Source of the DNA: Pseudomonas phage BRkr
DNA: 64,000 bases
Sequence record: LC765218.1
Strand: one strand, 5' to 3'
Positions 53,337 through 63,478 of the stretch are shown here, piece by piece. The notes under the pieces are model-generated. The model was not told the DNA's origin. It did no database searches and worked only from the letters and a program-made list of their open reading frames with translations. The stretch's first letter is position 1; every line of letters begins with the position of its first letter. The position numbers were made by a program, and so were the translations under genes.

Positions 53337-53900
53337 TCATTGTATTTGGATTGAAGTCTCATAACCGCCAGACGTCTTGTACGACCTGAATCTTTTTGGA
53401 ACTGGTATATCGTAACGACGGCACCATTTTCTAACAGCGTTATCTGATACGCCGTATTTCTTCCCAATTTTAGTTAATGGTAAAATATGTAGATCGGCAA
53501 TGAGCTGATCTTTATCGGGTCGCTCCACTTTACGATTACCTTTACCCGTGCATTCAAGGCTACAATAATATTCTTGCTCTGTACTAAGTACAGAACCACA
53601 ACATCTACAAAGTTTAGTGGGGTACTTAGTTGGATCTATACCCATCCTCCGCATCCATGCATGTAATTTAACATGCATTGCATCGGGAAGGATTAGTAGA
53701 TTTTCTGGGTGATTATTGGACCTGTTCTCATCCAAGTGATGTACAACTTCATCGTCATATAAAGGACGACCCAATACTTCCTCGGCTACGACTCGATGTT
53801 CATAAACCCACCCCCACATATTCTTATTCTTCTTAGCTTCTGGGTGATCCGGCCTATAAAGCAAAATATATCCGTTCAGTTCTCTCGAACGCTCTTCCAT
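53337..53900 (-). CDS. HNH homing endonuclease (paralog 1)
   Basis: HNH motif HHLDENRSNNHPENL; C-terminal Cys4 plus HTH-like KYGVSDNAVRKWCRRY; closely related to 61604..62161. Confidence 0.85.
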   Translation of the reverse strand: MEERSRELNGYILLYRPDHPEAKKNKNMWGWVYEHRVVAEEVLGRPLYDDEVVHHLDENRSNNHPENLLILPDAMHVKLHAWMRRMGIDPTKYPTKLCRCCGSVLSTEQEYYCSLECTGKGNRKVERPDKDQLIADLHILPLTKIGKKYGVSDNAVRKWCRRYDIPVPKRFRSYKTSGGYETSIQIQ

Positions 53901-53975: not shown

Positions 53976-54056
<81 letters not shown>

Positions 54057-54119: not shown

Positions 54120-55700
54120 TTATTTTATTTCGTATTCGACTACGGGTGTTGTTTTAGATACATCACCACCAAATCGATAGACTCCATCGGATACAACTAA
54201 CATCTCTTCATACGAAGAAATAGCTGGGAAGGTATCTCCGATTAGTTCTGGCTCTTTATTAAGTTGCACCAAAGCTAATCGTGTTCCGGAGTTATTCGTC
54301 ACATAGATGTTATTACCGAATATGATTCCTCTATACGTCGAATATTTGTTGGCAGGCGCATTCAAAGGAATGACTTCAGTTGTACTAAAATCAGAACTAA
54401 TCTTTACGTAGTCCGTTGGCGAGATGTTTGTCCCACCTATTGTTAATCTACCTTGAGATGCAACGATAACTAATTCACCATTATCGTTAAATCCTAAATT
54501 ATGATGCCATAATTCAATTGGTAGAACATCAGCAATCATGCCGATTTCATATGTCGTAAGGTTAACTGTTATAATGTTCTTATGGATTTTATCACTGCGT
54601 CCAGAGAAACCACCAACAATGTACAGTATATCGTCTTTAACTATACTAGCTGTACGTTCGATGTAATATGCATCGACTAAACCTGGAATAGCAGCTAGCT
54701 TTTTAGTTTCCCATGTGTCGGTAGCTATCGTGTAAATATAAATAGTCGGACCAGTAGACAATGGGTTACCATGCAAAATCAACTTACCATTATTGTAAAC
54801 CATATTGGTTGTAGTTGTCTCGCCTTGGAACGGAACTGTAGATGGTAACTTGGTCCATGTTTTAGTATCTCGGTCTAACCGATGTAAGTCGGACATGAAC
54901 GTAGTAGGTCCTGTTGTATATCCACAGGCCATGTAAATATCGTTGTTATCCGAATCATACGCGAGTACTGGCATCCCACGTTGCGGCGGTGGATTTACAG
55001 TCGACAATACAGAGGTAATACCTTTAAGTTCCTTTGGCGGAATATATTCAAGTACCGGTCGCCATCCACGATAACTAGTAGCTTCTGTTGGCGGATGACC
55101 ATCGTAAATATAAAGGCCATTCTTTGCCTGAGGATGAGTTGTCGATGGTGAAAACTGTAGGTAATTACCATTGGTATTTCTATTAGCCGCCCAGTTATAA
55201 CTTCCGTTTCCGGCGCCTATAAGTTGTTCATCTGTGTACTTTGCCCAACTTCCTTTAGTTGTAACATTGCCAAAAATATCCCACAATTCAGAACCTTCAT
55301 TACCTTGAGTAGCGATATCCGAATAAGGATTTACTCCAGCATTCATTAGACGAACTTTAAACATGTTCCCATCGATTACAATAACTTTACTACCATCTAT
55401 TAAACCAGCCTCGTCAAGTTGGTTTGGACTAATGGAATGGAGAATAGCTGTCTTCGAATAATAAAGAATAACATTATTTCTAGATACTTTAATCCAACCA
55501 GCATCTGTATTTATAGTACCAATGGAGTCAAGCTCAACAAGTGTTCTTAACTGAGGGTAAGTTATAAACTTGTCGCTTGTCAACTCACCATACAGACCAA
55601 GTGTCGAATCACCTTGTTCAAAGGTAGATGGACCCGGTAGTTTATTTCCTGTAGCCTTAATGAGTGCAGACAATAATGATTCGAACATAATTTTATCCAT
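54120..55700 (-). CDS. Kelch-repeat beta-propeller protein 1 (candidate tail fibre/receptor-binding protein); N-terminus MDKIMFESLLSAL
   Basis: repeated hydrophobic-GG Kelch blades; MFExLL motif 4 codons after the first ATG. Confidence 0.75.
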   Translation of the reverse strand: MDKIMFESLLSALIKATGNKLPGPSTFEQGDSTLGLYGELTSDKFITYPQLRTLVELDSIGTINTDAGWIKVSRNNVILYYSKTAILHSISPNQLDEAGLIDGSKVIVIDGNMFKVRLMNAGVNPYSDIATQGNEGSELWDIFGNVTTKGSWAKYTDEQLIGAGNGSYNWAANRNTNGNYLQFSPSTTHPQAKNGLYIYDGHPPTEATSYRGWRPVLEYIPPKELKGITSVLSTVNPPPQRGMPVLAYDSDNNDIYMACGYTTGPTTFMSDLHRLDRDTKTWTKLPSTVPFQGETTTTNMVYNNGKLILHGNPLSTGPTIYIYTIATDTWETKKLAAIPGLVDAYYIERTASIVKDDILYIVGGFSGRSDKIHKNIITVNLTTYEIGMIADVLPIELWHHNLGFNDNGELVIVASQGRLTIGGTNISPTDYVKISSDFSTTEVIPLNAPANKYSTYRGIIFGNNIYVTNNSGTRLALVQLNKEPELIGDTFPAISSYEEMLVVSDGVYRFGGDVSKTTPVVEYEIK

Positions 55701-55996: not shown

Positions 55997-56935
55997 TCAC
56001 GGGTTTTCTGGATCGTAAACCCACAGGTCATTATGATAGACACCATTTGTATAACCACCAGATAAATAAATCTTACCGTTATAAACTTCCATATTGGCGT
56101 AGAACCGAGTAGGCGGCATCTTACCAGGAGGAAGAATTATATTTGACCATGTGTCAGTTTCAATATCGTAAACACTGAAAATATGATCGTTATTAATAGT
56201 GTTAGGAGTAGAACTTGTACCAGATTGACCACCGAATACATAGATCTTATTGTTAAGAGCTACGGCAGAATGTCTGTTCCTATTTACAAGACCATTCTTG
56301 TGGGGTGTCCATGTATTGTTGTCGACATTATAACTTCTGAATGTGGCAACTGACGTATTAGCTGTTTCATAGCCACCTAACGTGTAGAGGCGTCGACCAT
56401 GACTTGTTAAAGTCGCATAACGAATTTGATAAGGTGGTGTCAAGTTAGCTACTGTGAAGTTATCGGTATTATAGCTCTTAAATTCATACATAATACCTTG
56501 TGCACCGTTACCACCAAATAGGTACACCTTATTATCAATAGCTGACATGCAATGACTGTTACGTACGGCCAATCCACCATTAGAGCGTGTTACAGGTGTA
56601 ATTGTCTCACCATCAATCGTAAACTCAATCATCGTGTTTGTATCAGCAGAACCAGTGTATCCACCGAATACATAAAACTTGTTATCAACTAAACCACCAG
56701 CTGCACGTAAATTAACGTTTGCTCCTGCCGGTAGTTCTTTCCATTCGTCTGTTAAGAAATCATAGACGGATACAGTATTGAACGCGTTAGTGGTAGCACG
56801 TCTACCACCGAAGATATAAAGTTTGTCTCCTACGACAACAGAGGTTGACTGGTTTCTTCCGACGTCGGGTCCCTGTAGCTGAACCCAACCTTGCTTACTT
56901 TTATATTCCCCAATTCCTAACAATGCTTCAAACAT
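55997..56935 (-). CDS. Kelch-repeat beta-propeller protein 2; N-terminus MFEALLGIGEY
   Basis: blades LYIFGG, FYVFGGYTG, VYLFGGNG, LYTLGGYE, IYVFGGQSG, IYLSGGYTNG. Confidence 0.8.
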   Translation of the reverse strand: MFEALLGIGEYKSKQGWVQLQGPDVGRNQSTSVVVGDKLYIFGGRRATTNAFNTVSVYDFLTDEWKELPAGANVNLRAAGGLVDNKFYVFGGYTGSADTNTMIEFTIDGETITPVTRSNGGLAVRNSHCMSAIDNKVYLFGGNGAQGIMYEFKSYNTDNFTVANLTPPYQIRYATLTSHGRRLYTLGGYETANTSVATFRSYNVDNNTWTPHKNGLVNRNRHSAVALNNKIYVFGGQSGTSSTPNTINNDHIFSVYDIETDTWSNIILPPGKMPPTRFYANMEVYNGKIYLSGGYTNGVYHNDLWVYDPENP

Positions 56936-58904: not shown

Positions 58905-60752
58905 TTAAATTCCAAGACGATAGAACTTGTCTGTAATTGTATTATTACTGGCTCCAGTTAGACCACCGCCAACATATGCTGTGCCATTAATAAATCCACC
59001 ATAGCCATCATTCACACCGTTTGGTAGTTCTGGTAGTTTACGCCAAGTTCTCGATTGGATATTATACGCATTGGCTTTTCTACGTTTGTCTTCGTCAACA
59101 CCGCCAATGTATATAATTTCTTCATCGTTAGTCAGCATTACACCGTAACTGTTAACACCTGGCCCATCGGTAGTCGGTAGAGACTCCCATGCAAATGTAT
59201 TCATATTCATTCGATCAAATCGACCGGATTGCGAACCATTTACAAATCCACCATAGACATACATGTACTCGCCGACAACAACCGCTCTATGTGAAGATCG
59301 TTGGATACCACCTTGCGCGACTCGTTTTGACCACATGTTAGATGCAATATCGTAGACGAACAACGCGTCAGATTCATTATTCCCGCCAAGCAAATAGAGC
59401 TTACCATTATAATGAACCATCGTAGCTTGTGTTCTAAATACTGGATTAGATGAACCCGGAGAAGCGGGTGTAATAGCCGTCCAATCATTGGTCGCTACGT
59501 TATAACGCCAGAAATCCGCTGATTGGTTAGATCCACTGAATAGGTACATATGTGTATCATTTGCAGCTGCACACATATTGGCACGTGCACTCGGACTTAA
59601 ACCAGATCCAGTGAATAGACCGTTCCATGTATTAGTCTCAGGATTATATTTATTAAACGCGCCTCTATATGCACCTGTACTTGTATACCCGCCGAACATA
59701 TACAGTTCATCATCTATTACAACCGCAGTGGAACCTCGACTATCATAAGGTGCGTTTGCCATTACTTCCCATTCAGTTTTACTTGGAGGGATAGGAATAG
59801 TGAATTTATAGATAGCTGCTTTCGTTCTTTCAGGGGTGTTAAAAAGGGCATCATCGATAACAATGTCCGAACCACCGATCAGATACAGATCGCCATTCGA
59901 TGGATTTAATGCGACTGATGTCCCATGGACCTCACCAATATTCGTCTCAGTAACAACAAATTGTTTTTCGGCGATATAATAACGAACACAATGAATCTTA
60001 CCATCTTTAACGATAGTGTAGTTAAAAGTCCCGTTCCAGTACTTACCACCTTGATGACCACCGTGGTAGTCTGTAGAGTATGAATGGTACAATGTCCATG
60101 TATTAATAGCACCGGTGTATTTATAAACATCTTGGTTAACAACCCAACTGCCAGAGATGTTCTTCCATCCACCCATCACATAGAAATTCCCTTTATGGCA
60201 GAATGCATACGCTCCAGATAGAATAACAGGGCACCGGGCACTCATTACTTCTCGAACGTTATTCGATAGTCTATAGCGAATCAAAAGATCTGTTGCATGT
60301 TCCAGTACCCAAATAAATTCACCGCCATCCCAATCGCCGATACTGTTATAAGTGGATGTATTCATCAACTGATTACTAATAAGATTATCATTAGGTACAG
60401 TTGGATTGATCATCGTGATGACGTTTTGTGTCCAAGAAGCGCCACGACGCCCACCGAACATGTAAAGTCTATCGGATGTTGGAACAAATACACCCGCCGT
60501 ATGACAAAGTGAATAACTATTTTGGACAGCTGTTTTACTGATTTGAGTACCAGTGCTATCAAAAATTCTGATGTTATTATCAGTTGTACTTCTTGATGGG
60601 GCACCACTATTAATATTTAATAAACCATTTCTGAAATAGGGTACCGATCCAACCAATCCAACATCCAGTTGTCCAAACAATGTTGGTTGGTTATACGGTA
60701 TCATTTCCACTGGCTTAGCTTGCCCAGCAGCTGATAACAATAATTCAAACAT
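58905..60752 (-). CDS. Kelch-repeat beta-propeller protein 3 (615 aa); N-terminus MFELLLSAAGQ
   Basis: at least 9 Kelch-like blades (LYMFGGRRG, FYVMGGW, LYLIGGSD, LYMFGGYTS, MYLFSGSN, LYLLGGNN, MYVYGGF, IYIGGVDED, AYVGGGLTG). Confidence 0.8.
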   Translation of the reverse strand: MFELLLSAAGQAKPVEMIPYNQPTLFGQLDVGLVGSVPYFRNGLLNINSGAPSRSTTDNNIRIFDSTGTQISKTAVQNSYSLCHTAGVFVPTSDRLYMFGGRRGASWTQNVITMINPTVPNDNLISNQLMNTSTYNSIGDWDGGEFIWVLEHATDLLIRYRLSNNVREVMSARCPVILSGAYAFCHKGNFYVMGGWKNISGSWVVNQDVYKYTGAINTWTLYHSYSTDYHGGHQGGKYWNGTFNYTIVKDGKIHCVRYYIAEKQFVVTETNIGEVHGTSVALNPSNGDLYLIGGSDIVIDDALFNTPERTKAAIYKFTIPIPPSKTEWEVMANAPYDSRGSTAVVIDDELYMFGGYTSTGAYRGAFNKYNPETNTWNGLFTGSGLSPSARANMCAAANDTHMYLFSGSNQSADFWRYNVATNDWTAITPASPGSSNPVFRTQATMVHYNGKLYLLGGNNESDALFVYDIASNMWSKRVAQGGIQRSSHRAVVVGEYMYVYGGFVNGSQSGRFDRMNMNTFAWESLPTTDGPGVNSYGVMLTNDEEIIYIGGVDEDKRRKANAYNIQSRTWRKLPELPNGVNDGYGGFINGTAYVGGGLTGASNNTITDKFYRLGI

Positions 60753-60820: not shown

Positions 60821-61477
60821 CTATTTCGTTATGGTTAACTCAACTTTTAAATACGCTCCGGGACTTGGAGGGTCATTAGGTTCAATAACCCGGAACGTTA
60901 TCGTATCCCCATATTTTTCTTTAATAGCCGATTCGAACGCATATATCGAAACATATTTATTATCTACAAAAATGTCGAAGGTTAGAACTGGTGGAATTGT
61001 CCTATATTCAGGGCTGGCCGGTGCCATATTTTCAGTTAAATAGATTAATGCTTCAGTTACACGTGTATCAATTTGGTATAGTAAATCATCTAACATTTCT
61101 ATATTGGTTAATCGTCCAACATTTCTATCATCCTTAATTATTTTATCGGCCAACTGTTTAGGTACAGGTGATAAAATAACATGTTTTCCTTTATATGCTT
61201 CAGCATGAGGTAATGGATCTTCTATTAAAAATACATTAATAAATCCAAATCCATCATACTCAATATCGTGTGTAGATGTATTTATGCCTAGTGACAGTAC
61301 TCCCTCACGTAACATATAGCCTTTAGCTAACACCTCATATGAATCAAGTGTTCTATGATATTTTGATCCATCTTCTATATGAGGACCACCATGGGTTCTA
61401 TGTCCTACAGCATTTATAACCTTAACTTCCATAAGGTTACTGTCATCTAAAAACAGGCCTTTTGATCTATTCAACAT
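60821..61477 (-). CDS. hypothetical protein
   Basis: RBS TAGGAGAT. Confidence 0.6.
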   Translation of the reverse strand: MLNRSKGLFLDDSNLMEVKVINAVGHRTHGGPHIEDGSKYHRTLDSYEVLAKGYMLREGVLSLGINTSTHDIEYDGFGFINVFLIEDPLPHAEAYKGKHVILSPVPKQLADKIIKDDRNVGRLTNIEMLDDLLYQIDTRVTEALIYLTENMAPASPEYRTIPPVLTFDIFVDNKYVSIYAFESAIKEKYGDTITFRVIEPNDPPSPGAYLKVELTITK

Positions 61478-61526
61478 TTTCAGTATCTCCTATAACTCCG
61501 ATATTGGAGTATAACATCACGGCATA

Positions 61527-61552
61527 AAAGAGTAGCCAATGGCTACTCTTTT
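61527..61552 (-). terminator. hairpin AAAAGAGTAGCC-AAT-GGCTACTCTTTT immediately 3' of the tRNA 3' fragment
   Basis: same repeat family as 62214..62237. Confidence 0.5.
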
Positions 61553-61557
61553 GAATT

Positions 61558-61590
61558 TGGCTCCGCGACCTGGACTCGAACCAGGGACCC
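61558..61590 (-). pseudogene. tRNA 3' half (T-arm CCTGG-TTCGAGT-CCAGG + acceptor 3' strand TCGCGGA-G-CCA)
   Basis: canonical T-arm and CCA end; acceptor strand is the exact complement of the 5' fragment at 62341..62374. Confidence 0.6.
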
Positions 61591-61603
61591 AGTATATTTT
61601 TTT

Positions 61604-62161
61604 TTATTGTGTGGGGACCAAGGTGCTAATACCCCCATTAGCACCGACCCTAATAAACCTAGCCGGAATATTGATCTTGTATGCTCGGCACCATTTACGA
61701 ATAGCGTTATCGGATACTCCATACTTCTCTCCTATTTTTACAAGTGATAGCAATGTAACATCGAGGGCAAGTTGTTCTTTGGATGGTCGATCCACCTTAC
61801 GACGACCTTTGGCTGAACACTCGGGGCTACAGAATGTTATCAGTCGGTGACTAATGACAATACCACAGCCAGCACAAAGCTTAGTTGGATAGTTCCTAGG
61901 ATCAATACCGAGCCGTTTCATCCAACCATGTAACTTCATGTGTTGTGACTGAGGGAGAATCAATAAGTTCTCTGGATGGTTGTTAAGCTTATTCTCATCC
62001 AGATGATGAACTTCCTCGTCATCGTAAAGTGGTCTACCTAATGTGTCTTCTCCAACCACTCGATGTTCGTAAACCCATCCAAACATTTTAGGGTTAGCTA
62101 TGGCTTGACGATGTTCGGGTAAATATAATGCCCTATAGCCGTTAATTATTTTCTCTTTCAT
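61604..62161 (-). CDS. HNH homing endonuclease (paralog 2)
   Basis: VHHLDENKLNNHPENL; about 70% identical to paralog 1 over the conserved core. Confidence 0.85.
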   Translation of the reverse strand: MKEKIINGYRALYLPEHRQAIANPKMFGWVYEHRVVGEDTLGRPLYDDEEVHHLDENKLNNHPENLLILPQSQHMKLHGWMKRLGIDPRNYPTKLCAGCGIVISHRLITFCSPECSAKGRRKVDRPSKEQLALDVTLLSLVKIGEKYGVSDNAIRKWCRAYKINIPARFIRVGANGGISTLVPTQ

Positions 62162-62213
62162 ATCGAACCTAGGATATATAAATAGATCGCTAGTTCGATC
62201 TATGTGACGGAAT

Positions 62214-62237
62214 AAAGAGTAGCCGGAGCTACTCTTT
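62214..62237 (-). terminator. hairpin AAAGAGTAGC-TCCG-GCTACTCTTT 3' of the nested tRNA
   Basis: repeat of the 61527 hairpin. Confidence 0.5.
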
Positions 62238-62242
62238 GAAAT

Positions 62243-62329
62243 TGGCTGGTAAGGTAGGATTCGAACCTACGATGGGCTTTCGCCAACGGATTAACAGTCC
62301 GCCCCCTGCTACCGCTCGGGTACTTACCA
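62243..62329 (-). tRNA. unusual tRNA: anticodon GUU (Asn-type anticodon arm identical to E. coli tRNA-Asn) with a long type-II-like variable arm
   Basis: perfect acceptor TGGTAAG/CTTACCA, D-arm CCC-GAGCGGTAGCA-GGG, anticodon stem GCGGA/TCCGT, loop CTGTTAA, 15-nt variable arm with GGC-GAAA-GCC hairpin, T-arm GTAGG-TTCGAAT-CCTAC, CCA encoded. Confidence 0.6.
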
Positions 62330-62340
62330 AGAAAACTATC

Positions 62341-62374
62341 CAGTCGCTTGCTCTACCGACTGAGCTATCGCGGA
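62341..62374 (-). pseudogene. tRNA 5' half (acceptor TCCGCGA + D-arm GCTCAGTCGGTAGAGC)
   Basis: canonical 5' tRNA half with no matching 3' partner nearby; complements the 3' fragment 760 nt downstream. Confidence 0.6.
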
Positions 62375-62470
62375 AGAATTATTAACAACTTCTTTCTTGT
62401 AGAAAAATCACAAGTAACTGAATTACAGTATTTCACTACATATTATTACAATCTGAGTTAGATAGTTATT

Positions 62471-63478
62471 TTAATCAATGGCTAATGGTGCTAGTTTTAC
62501 CTGATAGATACCTGATAACAATTGGCTTTTTAACATATATGCTCCACCACCAACTGGCATTTTAGATCCACCTGCAATGATCATGCTATTATCTGGTCCT
62601 TTGGCTATAGATGAAATATTAAGGAATCCAATACCTAGTTCAAATGGTTCAGCCCATTTCCGGCGCCTAATATTAAAACGCTGTGCAAACATTTTAGTTA
62701 CACCGCCGACATCAACTGCATTAAGGTAATTAAAATATTCCCCATCTACATAACCATTACCTTGCCATATTGTTGCTTTGTCAGCAGGTATTATTAGCCA
62801 TGGTGTTAGTTCCCATACAAGTGTAGTAACATTGTATCTATAGACTTCTAAGTTTGGTATGTTCTTAGTATTATCCCAGCCACCAAAATGGTAGAAATAA
62901 CCATTATAATAAAATAATTGTTGACCTGACCTAGGTCCACCGCTATAGTCTTGACCGCCGAGCCAGTTCTTAGTCGATGGTTTTAATCGCATGGCGTTTG
63001 TACCAACTGGATTAACACACATAATAAGATCATTGCCATCAGACGCTGACGCAGTTCCCCATAATGCACCAGGACCACTATAACGCTCAACGCGACTACC
63101 TGTGCTTATATCAAAATGTTGTATAAAGTTAGAAGTACCTGTACCCCCATCACCTGCTGCGTTCCATCCAGTAATACCACCATAAACAATAAAGTTATTT
63201 TTATGTAATGTACCAAATCCAAGTGATACACCCGGTAAAAATGTACCAGATGCTGTTGCGCTTATCTCTGTAAATGGGTTTATAGTGAACCGTCTGAAAA
63301 CAGTTGCTGCTGATTGTCCTTCCGTATGATGTCCGGATCCAACATATAACGTATTTCCATCTACGTACGACATCGTACCTGCCAATGCTACCGGTAGGTC
63401 ACCTAATTTTATAATTTCACTAAATCCAACCAAGGGTGTTTCATCGCCTAAACCTGATGATAATAGTAATTCAAACAT
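62471..63478 (-). CDS. Kelch-repeat beta-propeller protein 4; N-terminus MFELLLSSGLG
   Basis: blades LYVGSG, FIVYGG, YFYHFGGW; 5' UTR nearly identical to that of protein 3. Confidence 0.75.
   Translation of the reverse strand: MFELLLSSGLGDETPLVGFSEIIKLGDLPVALAGTMSYVDGNTLYVGSGHHTEGQSAATVFRRFTINPFTEISATASGTFLPGVSLGFGTLHKNNFIVYGGITGWNAAGDGGTGTSNFIQHFDISTGSRVERYSGPGALWGTASASDGNDLIMCVNPVGTNAMRLKPSTKNWLGGQDYSGGPRSGQQLFYYNGYFYHFGGWDNTKNIPNLEVYRYNVTTLVWELTPWLIIPADKATIWQGNGYVDGEYFNYLNAVDVGGVTKMFAQRFNIRRRKWAEPFELGIGFLNISSIAKGPDNSMIIAGGSKMPVGGGAYMLKSQLLSGIYQVKLAPLAID

Follow-up and report, generated by a model that had tools for sequence, protein, structure and literature searches.

The 64,000-nucleotide (nt) stretch of Pseudomonas phage BRkr that we analysed (LC765218.1; hereafter the window) encodes on its minus strand, at 62243..62329, an 87-nt transfer RNA (tRNA) that combines GUU, the anticodon of asparagine (Asn), with a long hairpin-forming variable arm. 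Our analysis confirmed that this element is a real phage tRNA with both of these properties. The explanation that we favour, with moderate confidence and on the basis of sequence comparisons, is that it is a functional AAC/AAU-decoding tRNA, most probably charged with Asn, that its extra arm is selected, and that its gene lies in an HNH endonuclease cassette that broke and replaced an ordinary tRNA-Asn gene. A long variable arm is assigned in textbooks to the tRNAs of Leu, Ser, Tyr (in bacteria) and selenocysteine (Sec), where it is taken as a hallmark of identity and architecture. The window derives from a phiKZ-like jumbo phage of Pseudomonas aeruginosa, with 97-99% identity to PA1C/phiLBG22 and about 86% identity to phiKZ.

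The tRNA and its variable region are placed as follows.

62243..62329 (read from 62329 to 62243), minus strand: long-arm tRNA(GUU), 87 nt, identified by ARAGORN, the Rfam tRNA family, a minimum free energy (MFE) cloverleaf and the family covariance model R1 (90.2 bits)
62271..62285, minus strand: variable region UGGCGAAAGCCCAUC, 15 nt, from the Rfam alignment and RNAfold

ARAGORN called the gene as tRNA-Asn(gtt), and the Rfam tRNA family (RF00005) matched 62246..62329 with 54.2 bits (E=1.5e-9; gathering score 29) in an alignment that places 11 inserted nt in the variable region. Both the MFE and the centroid structures of RNAfold are a cloverleaf with a fifth hairpin, the variable arm, and the fold energy of -31.7 kcal/mol compares with a mean of -25.3 for shuffled sequences (z=-2.0). 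The RNA is parsed as UGGUAAG-UA-CCCG-AGCGGUAGC-AGGG-G-GCGGA-CUGUUAA-UCCGU-UGGCGAAAGCCCAUC-GUAGG-UUCGAAU-CCUAC-CUUACCA-G-CCA. All seven acceptor pairs are Watson-Crick, the discriminator base is G73 and the CCA end is encoded. The anticodon occupies nt 35-37 of the RNA (window 62295-62293), and the GGC-GAAA-GCC hairpin of the variable region lies at 62284-62275 on the minus strand. The 17-nt anticodon stem-loop GCGGACUGUUAAUCCGU, including the pair G27-U43, is exactly that of E. coli K-12 asnT. The D-arm, in turn, is class-II-like, with a 3-bp stem, G13-A22 and an enlarged D-loop that contains C16 and two nt more after G19 than that of E. coli asnT. The molecule therefore departs from type-I architecture, in which the variable loop has 4-5 nt, the D-stem has 4 bp and the D-loop is free of extra bases. 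An earlier note on this DNA had described an 87-nt cloverleaf with a perfect acceptor stem, a canonical T-arm, an encoded CCA, the anticodon stem-loop of E. coli tRNA-Asn down to G27-U43 and a 15-nt variable arm with its own GGC-GAAA-GCC hairpin, adding that a fold with a normal variable loop would overturn this description. The architecture was borne out in all these respects, although the note had left the strand unstated. ARAGORN, Infernal, RNAfold and RNAalifold all returned the long-arm cloverleaf and none produced a fold with a 4-5-nt variable loop, so that we rejected this alternative fold.

The tRNA belongs to a widespread family. Using its 87 nt as a blastn query against 50,697 phage records, we obtained matches in 459 of them. 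Full-length relatives, all with the anticodon GUU, were found in phiKZ-type phages, phage Y1-MI, Proteus phage Stubb, many T5-like Tequintavirus, Erwinia phage pEp_SNUABM_01 and E. coli phage ESCO5, and rV5-like phages also carry a long-arm tRNA(GUU). Sequence identity to the window tRNA is 95% in phiKZ and 100% in PA1C and phiHQ; the gene thus keeps 95-100% identity in surroundings that are about 86% identical. That it is kept in these three phages and in more distant ones puts its persistence far beyond chance. In the unrelated 93-kb Pseudomonas fluorescens phage Y1-MI (locus L003, 2501-2588) the long-arm tRNA shares 84% of the sequence and has the same acceptor and T stems. This suggests that the tRNA gene has been transferred horizontally between Pseudomonas phages.

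We scanned the viral contigs of IMG/VR with the pattern TGTTAA-N8-12-GAAA-N7-13-GGTTCGA, which cannot match a type-I tRNA. At least 95 sites (95 of the 128 among the matches listed) were called by ARAGORN as tRNA-Asn(gtt) of 82-91 nt, and the scan yielded at least 87 distinct long-arm tRNA(GUU) sequences, many on contigs of 100-600 kb. The same pattern was applied to one genome from each of 185,579 bacterial and archaeal species (GTDB), where 3 of 121 sites were long-arm tRNA(GUU), each in a tRNA array on a contig of a metagenome-assembled genome. These three cases (loci L238, L246 and L151) lie in arrays of 18, 11 and 3 tRNA genes, one of them on a 1.03-Mb alphaproteobacterial contig and one on a 3-kb contig binned as Bathyarchaeota, and they look like prophage or mis-binned phage DNA. 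Relative to chance matches, viral contigs are roughly hundred-fold enriched over cellular ones. Given so few cellular sites, all in dense tRNA arrays, we rejected a cellular origin. With a pattern that is neutral to arm length (CTGTTAA-N13-40-GGTTCGA), 120 phage stretches contained 94 tRNA-Asn(gtt), of which about nine (roughly 9%) had a long arm, and six of these about nine arms had GNRA loops. Host assignments refer to cultured phages only.

Judging from these scans, long-arm tRNA(GUU) is a large and diverse family found almost only in phages. The restriction of long arms to Leu, Ser, Tyr and Sec tRNAs, as previously stated for this element, therefore holds for cells; it does not hold for phages, in which we found about 90 distinct long-arm tRNA(GUU) in addition to long-arm tRNAs for Lys, Thr, Met, Ile, Gln and Cys. 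The gene itself is already annotated in the GenBank records of relatives, as plain tRNA-Asn. Since pipelines give such genes the bare label 'tRNA-Asn' (at times 'Asx' or 'Lys'), databases do not reveal the class. We did not find a description of long-arm tRNA-Asn in phages in the open-access full-text literature, although absence there is not proof, and the class was not found discussed in the literature that can be searched.

We then asked whether the extra arm is maintained as a structure. RNAalifold predicted all five helices from 24 diverse members, and a covariance model built from that alignment was used to align the 57 best matches, which comprise 53 distinct sequences. Over the distinct sequences, standard pairs fill 98.7% of the cells, as opposed to 60% in shuffles and 35-45% with slid partners; none of 500 shuffles reached the observed values, and 22 of the 23 pairs change on both sides, these figures being taken from an alignment that was fitted to the model. 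Each of the three variable-arm pairs is found in GC, CG, AU and UA variants, with 96.1% of the cells paired. This covariation indicates that the extra hairpin is under selection. The D-arms of the family, for their part, form a mosaic that extends from Asn-like (pEp_SNUABM_01) through Leu-like to Tyr-like, and searches for the nearest non-Asn relative of the 5' half returned weak matches, with E. coli tyrV among the best. As to the origin of the family, a Tyr or Ser body might have been recruited to Asn or, alternatively, an Asn tRNA might have gained a hairpin.

The amino acid carried by the tRNA was approached through its identity elements. In bacteria, Asn identity consists of GUU and G73, a set used by both asparaginyl-tRNA synthetase (AsnRS) and the aspartyl-tRNA synthetase of the non-discriminating type (ND-AspRS) (PMC9976931). 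Asn-tRNA in P. aeruginosa is made by ND-AspRS together with GatCAB (PMC2330236), and bacterial GatCAB requires U1-A72 (PMC9976931, PMC2330236, PMC2811023). The window tRNA carries G34, U35 and U36 (with A37), G73 and U1-A72, the latter pair being shared by 40 of the 53 aligned and 60 of the 94 compared family members. G73 is an antideterminant for the leucyl- and tyrosyl-tRNA synthetases (PMC9976931); the tRNA differs from tRNA-Leu by this base, and from tRNA-Tyr by this base and U36. Bacterial tRNA-Leu is marked by A73 together with particular D/T tertiary elements, and tRNA-Tyr by A73 with G34 and U35. Ser identity rests on G73, C72, G2-C71, R4-Y69, C11-G24, G30-C40 and a large arm (PMC9976931). 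Here, the window tRNA deviates at position 72 (A), at pair 4-69 (U-A) and in its arm of 15 nt and 3 bp.

We compared the discriminator base, pairs 1-72 and 2-71 and the arm geometry among tRNAs of the same phage contigs.

Long-arm Asn (n=94): G73 95%; 1-72 U-A 64%, G-C 31%; 2-71 C-G 40%, G-C 37%; median arm 15 nt with a 3-bp stem
Type-I phage Asn (n=112): G73 87%; 1-72 U-A 66%; 2-71 G-C 47%, C-G 41%; short loop
Ser(GCU) (n=34): G73 94%; 1-72 G-C 94%; 2-71 G-C 100%; median arm 18 nt with a 5-bp stem
Tyr (n=59): A73 98% (58/59); 1-72 G-C 88%; 2-71 G-C 73%; median arm 14 nt with a 3-bp stem
Leu (n=71): A73 in nearly all (33/35, 28/28, 8/8); 1-72 mixed; 2-71 mostly C-G; median arm 13 nt

This comparison, which the earlier note had recommended for the discriminator and pairs 1-72 and 2-71, indicates that the family combines the acceptor end of tRNA-Asn with an arm of Tyr-like size. 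Because this acceptor end (G73 and, mostly, U1-A72) matches that of ordinary phage tRNA-Asn and not those of Ser, Tyr or Leu tRNAs, Asn is the most likely amino acid, and we are fairly confident that the window tRNA would be charged with it. In three lineages of enteric phages the first pair is G1-C72, which is compatible with direct charging by AsnRS. The contrast at 1-72 between Pseudomonas and enteric phages sets one lineage against three and is no more than suggestive.

The long-arm tRNA shares the CUGUUAA loop, G73 and U1-A72 with ordinary type-I tRNA-Asn (E. coli asnT and the 76-nt tRNA of phiKZ), and the family statistics at 1-72, 2-71 and 73 are alike. It differs by its 15-nt hairpin variable region in place of 5 nt, its 3-bp D-stem with G13-A22 and its enlarged D-loop, and its acceptor and T stems show no relation to the corresponding stems of the type-I tRNA-Asn that the phage itself encodes. 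It resembles E. coli tyrV, a class-II tRNA-Tyr(GUA), in D-arm layout (CCCGAGCGG....AGGG), T-loop, G34 and U35, and it resembles tRNA-Tyr in arm size, with a 3-bp stem followed by 3-4 unpaired nt. Unlike tRNA-Tyr, however, it has U36 rather than A36, G73 rather than the essential A73, and U1-A72 as first pair.

Alternatively, it is possible that during infection the tRNA mistranslates AAC/AAU codons, deliberately or tolerably, either with Ser after charging by seryl-tRNA synthetase (SerRS) or with Asp if ND-AspRS charges it and GatCAB then rejects it on account of its enlarged D-loop or its arm. Ser identity depends chiefly on the long arm and G73 (PMC9976931, PMC5389517), G2-C71, C11-G24 and G30-C40 are present in the window tRNA, and a single C35U change in tRNA-Ser(GCU) would yield GUU together with G73. 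Indeed, the best non-Asn matches of the family model are phage tRNA-Ser(GCU), with 71.7 and 70.5 bits. An Asp outcome would be favoured by the extra D-loop bases, which are GatCAB antideterminants (PMC2811023). The Ser determinants are, however, not kept across the family (G1-C72 31%, G2-C71 37%, with the anti-SerRS pair C2-G71 in 40%), whereas G73 (95%) and U1-A72 (64%) follow ordinary tRNA-Asn, and the arm is of Tyr size (median 15 nt, 3 bp) and not of Ser size (18 nt, 5 bp). Moreover, the long-arm gene is the sole tRNA(GUU) in the broad tRNA clusters of a T5-like phage and of Proteus phage Stubb, as far as the examined regions extend, and the sole GUU tRNA left in the cluster of PA1C-type phages. 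We consider the mischarging or recoding raised by the earlier note to be unlikely.

Long-arm tRNAs with the anticodon of a type-I amino acid have precedents. The nev-tRNAs of nematodes and the tRNA-Ser(CAG) of Candida are class-II bodies that keep their Leu or Ser identity and mistranslate. The same is true of bacterial allo-tRNAs, in which a class-II body retains its own identity (PMC5389517). In contrast to all of these, the acceptor end of the window tRNA agrees with its anticodon in specifying Asn. The long-arm body thus appears to have been remodelled without a change of meaning.

Why a phage tRNA-Asn should carry an arm at all might be related to anti-phage nucleases. tRNA-Asn(GUU) is a target of the PARIS nuclease AriB, whose cut falls between nt 40 and nt 41 and which, in the D-loop, also reads U16-U17 (PMC12409363). 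U16C impairs AriB (PMC12409363, PMC12445682), and P2 OLD, which likewise has tRNA-Asn(GUU) as a target, cuts in the anticodon stem too (PMC12445682). The extra arm leaves the tRNA core three to four nt from the AriB cut site. Provided that the rest of our reading holds, we tentatively propose that the arm and C16 might render this tRNA poorly cleavable by host defence enzymes whose targets are the anticodon stems of tRNA-Asn, tRNA-Lys and tRNA-Thr. Of the nuclease-related ideas, evasion seems more plausible than a decoy. Described phage escapes involve the T5 tRNA-Lys, tRNA-Thr and tRNA-Asn against PARIS AriB and a phage tRNA-Thr against P2 OLD (PMC12409363, PMC12445682). Like these, the window tRNA is a phage copy of a nuclease target, and it has C16; unlike these, which rely on substitutions in or shortening of the anticodon stem, it keeps the stem and differs in architecture. 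We rejected the rescue from PARIS by 'T5 tRNA-Asn' as functional evidence for the arm, because the tRNA-Asn of T5 is a 78-nt type-I molecule and the published rescue concerns that form.

Long arms were also found on phage tRNAs for Gln(UUG), Lys(CUU), Lys(UUU), Thr(UGU), Met/fMet(CAU), Ile(UAU) and Cys, often with GAAA loops; examples are found in Y1-MI (L003, 709-793), Xanthomonas phage X1 (L007, 383-471), Erwinia phage pEa_SNUABM_47 (L010, 373-459) and numerous IMG/VR loci. In contigs with a long-arm tRNA-Asn, they were present on Lys, Thr(UGU), Met/fMet and Ile(UAU) tRNAs as well. Both the GGCGAAAGCCCAUCG arm and the T-arm of the window tRNA recur in the Lys(CUU) tRNA of X1. Over the fetched phage contigs, long arms were carried by 33 of 507 tRNAs with U36 and by 23 of 849 others, a difference of about 2.5-fold (Fisher p=0.001) in a biased sample of contigs chosen for tRNA-Asn of either kind, with unverified ARAGORN calls.

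A second alternative is that the RNA has no role in translation and serves as a decoy or sponge for host anticodon nucleases, or as a processing or punctuation element of the cassette transcript. The authors of the PARIS study considered that overexpressed viral tRNAs might inhibit AriB by non-productive binding (PMC12409363). The susceptible UAAUC/C stem of E. coli tRNA-Asn is retained here, and the position between a tRNA fragment and the HNH open reading frame (ORF) would allow RNase P and RNase Z sites to process the transcript. Yet even very divergent members keep the parts needed for translation, namely the 7-bp acceptor stem, G73, the CUGUUAA loop and the T-loop, often with an encoded CCA, and a pure decoy would have no need of Asn-type features at 1-72 and 73. 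We therefore regard a role outside translation as improbable.

The genomic setting of the tRNA is that of an insertion into another tRNA-Asn gene, with the following features in the direction of transcription.

62341..62374, minus strand: 5' fragment of a type-I tRNA-Asn, nt 1-34, ending in the anticodon loop (blastn, 94% to the 76-nt tRNA-Asn of phiKZ; nhmmer; alignment with the empty site of phage Bobae)
61594..62340, minus strand: whole insert of 747 bp, made of spacer, long-arm tRNA, hairpins, HNH ORF and A-rich tail (occupied versus empty site)
62330..62340, minus strand: 11-nt spacer from the type-I 5' fragment to the long-arm tRNA, left end of the insert (alignments)
62214..62237, minus strand: hairpin AAAGAGUAGC-UCCG-GCUACUCUUU directly 3' of the long-arm tRNA (read from the sequence)
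61604..62161, minus strand: HNH endonuclease ORF of 185 amino acids, second gene of the insert (Pfam HNH_3, PF13392)
61558..61593, minus strand: 3' fragment of the type-I tRNA-Asn, nt 41-76 including CCA (blastn, 97% to the 76-nt tRNA-Asn of phiKZ; alignment)
61526..61552, minus strand: trailer hairpin AAAAGAGUAGCC-AUU-GGCUACUCUUUU of the type-I tRNA-Asn (read from the sequence; homologue of the trailer that follows the intact tRNA-Asn of phiKZ)

In phage 6B, of the phiKZ type, the locus is built alike and neither half lacks any nt (...CUGUUA / insert / (U)AAUCACU...), while phage Bobae, also of the phiKZ type, has at the same place an uninterrupted 76-nt tRNA-Asn with identical flanks on both sides. 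Comparison of the empty site of Bobae with the occupied site of 6B places the insertion of the ~0.8-kb cassette at about position 37/38, within the anticodon loop, where 2 nt (TA) may have been duplicated. In the window, ~30 nt at the right junction, including tRNA nt 38-40, are deleted relative to phiKZ, a further decay of the split gene. Presence of the cassette varies between phiKZ-type genomes that are nearly identical: phiKZ, 6B, Brmt, NK1 and others have it, and many, such as PA7, LC, Bobae and PA02, lack it (window 61000-62466). The HNH_3 match of the 185-residue protein is well above the cutoff (E=1.3e-10; 41.2 bits against 24.8), and the protein is 99% identical in PA1C, 89% in phiKZ and 62% in a tRNA-linked homologue from a 310-kb IMG/VR phage, in which long-arm tRNA, hairpin and HNH gene are paired outside any split gene. 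The hairpin at 62214..62237 is homologous to the trailer hairpin after type-I tRNA-Asn; a consensus terminator scan did not call it, and called a second hairpin at 62203-62182. As expected of a homing cassette, its ORF encodes an endonuclease from a homing family, and close relatives either carry the cassette or lack it, with an empty site that is precise. These comparisons indicate that the cassette is a mobile insert that broke an ordinary tRNA-Asn gene and that the long-arm tRNA is its cargo. The earlier suggestion that the tRNA is an intermediate of a split-gene arrangement was thus wrong in direction, since it is the insert carrying the tRNA that split the ordinary gene.

In the acceptor stem of the split type-I tRNA-Asn, pair 5-68 is C-G in the window and U-A in phiKZ, a compensatory difference between halves that lie apart. 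Most likely, the cassette entered resident alleles that differed, or gene conversion with such alleles took place. In other phages, nhmmer searches with a type-I tRNA-Asn profile found partial fragments near long-arm genes that ARAGORN had not called, at the IMG/VR loci L082 (612-670), L109 (2367-2399), L269 (2745-2785), L030 (9488-9517) and L015 (4308-4348) / L087 (7646-7686). These may be further fractured or truncated tRNA-Asn genes. At the Cys-Asn-Asp site of T5-like phages, T5 has its 78-nt type-I tRNA-Asn (L006, 5953-6030), whereas Salmonella phage GEC_vB_N3 has an 83-nt long-arm tRNA (L005, 2480-2562), and other Tequintavirus genomes, not T5, carry the long-arm allele. One allele seems to have taken the place of the other at a single site.

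A spliced or split tRNA-Asn gene would also account for the interruption, the 747-nt insert being an intron (group I or other) with a homing endonuclease and the 87-nt element a structured portion of that intron or an intermediate. In favour, introns classically sit where this insert does, at about 37/38 in the anticodon loop, joining the two phiKZ exons, neither of which lacks anything, would give a whole tRNA-Asn, and there is the compensatory difference at 5-68. However, the 961-nt interval 61480-62440 gave no Rfam match to group I or group II introns even at E<=10, and of the marks that a group I intron should have (P3-P9 core, U at the 5' splice site, terminal G at the 3' splice site), the G is missing, as none adjoins the 3' exon at the insert junction. 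Exon nt 35-40 are deleted in the window, where no tRNA could be rebuilt, and the 87-nt element is a complete tRNA that is free-standing in many other phages. We rejected the intron and split-tRNA readings on these grounds, regard splicing as very improbable, and read the interval as an intron-less insertion. Finally, a neutral passenger or decaying pseudogene, its arm an accident of recombination between tRNA genes, would fit the mosaic D-arms and the variable-arm and T-arm module common to the window tRNA and X1 Lys(CUU), but is scarcely credible given the strong covariation in all five helices including the extra arm, the 95-100% conservation against about 86% in the surroundings and the breadth of the family.

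Taken as a mobile cassette with a functional tRNA, the locus can be envisaged to work as follows. The cassette, on entering an ordinary tRNA-Asn gene at about position 37/38, would have destroyed it, and the long-arm tRNA, whose anticodon is the same, would stand in for the lost gene. We infer that the long-arm tRNA is transcribed and processed, with RNase P cutting away the preceding tRNA fragment and spacer. In Pseudomonas, the tRNA would be charged by ND-AspRS and then converted by GatCAB, as G73, GUU and U1-A72 are all present, and Asn-charged tRNA would decode AAY codons for a phage rich in Asn codons, which account for 5.9% of the codons in long ORFs of the window (G+C content of 43%). 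A second type-I tRNA-Asn, which lies beside tRNA-Asp in phiKZ, is absent from the lineage of the window; besides the long-arm tRNA, there is therefore no GUU tRNA in the 64-kb window or in the 5 kb that adjoin it in PA1C. The cassette itself would spread by recombination stimulated by its endonuclease, presumably active at such sites, while the carried tRNA compensates for the disrupted gene.

Several observations weigh against this explanation. The window tRNA retains the Ser determinants G73, G2-C71, C11-G24, G30-C40 and a long arm. The class IIb synthetases and the tail of GatB approach the tRNA from the side of its variable loop and D-loop, and an extra D-loop base in tRNA-Asp and tRNA-Glu is a GatCAB antideterminant (PMC9976931, PMC2811023); the two extra D-loop nt after G19 mean that aspartylation or transamidation could be impaired. 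The anticodon stem retains the AriB-type susceptible sequence UAAUC/C, and any resistance to nucleases would therefore have to be architectural. phiKZ retains its second, intact type-I tRNA-Asn with the same target sequence, which implies that the HNH enzyme does not obviously convert every copy. Lastly, the IMG/VR pattern demanded a GAAA loop and the family sample is accordingly biased.

It is conceivable, although we think it somewhat doubtful, that all parts combine: the arm, a hairpin grafted beside the top of the anticodon stem, would act with the remodelled D-loop as an architectural anti-defence device against AriB and OLD-type Toprim nucleases that leaves charging and decoding intact, as it would in other phages on tRNAs for AAR, ACA and AUN codons, and the HNH cassette would be self-compensating. 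If so, the cassette could destroy the ordinary tRNA-Asn without splicing because it delivers a resistant replacement. Free-standing homing endonuclease genes are known from phage tRNA clusters, as in SegB of T4 and the HNH genes hegA, hegC and hegD of T5. The present cassette resembles these systems, and 'fractured genes', in having an HNH gene in a tRNA cluster, variable presence among relatives and a precise empty site. It differs from SegB and the heg genes in that the insert lies inside a tRNA gene and brings a complete substitute with the same anticodon. We neither know of nor found a described case of such an insert, and the cassette offers a clear case from nature in which a homing-type element provides a substitute for the gene that it disrupts. 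More generally, phage-restricted Asn tRNAs with a selected arm show that the class boundary is routinely crossed in viruses. Allele pairs suited to further study are phiKZ-type phages with and without the cassette, and T5 and T5-like phages at the same site. They open the questions of how long arms are tolerated by class IIb synthetases and GatCAB, and whether architecture, beyond point mutations in the stem, is a means of escape from tRNA-cleaving immunity.

Four further tRNAs, for Thr, Leu, Tyr and Met, were identified in the window by ARAGORN. A second HNH_3 paralogue (53337-53900, minus strand), 60% identical to the cassette enzyme, is encoded 76 nt downstream of the tRNA-Thr (53976-54053, minus strand). 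We searched its flanks for tRNA fragments, found none, and rejected a parallel split gene at this tRNA-Thr. The window also contains four paralogous Kelch-repeat ORFs that all start with MFE.LL and are all on the minus strand (54120-55700, 55997-56935, 58905-60752 and 62471-63478). On the coding strand, a tRNA gene comes after each of these ORFs at a distance within about 45-100 nt; the genes concerned are those for Thr, Leu and Tyr and the 5' piece of the interrupted type-I tRNA-Asn. A Kelch ORF with a tRNA is thus a repeated module in the window.

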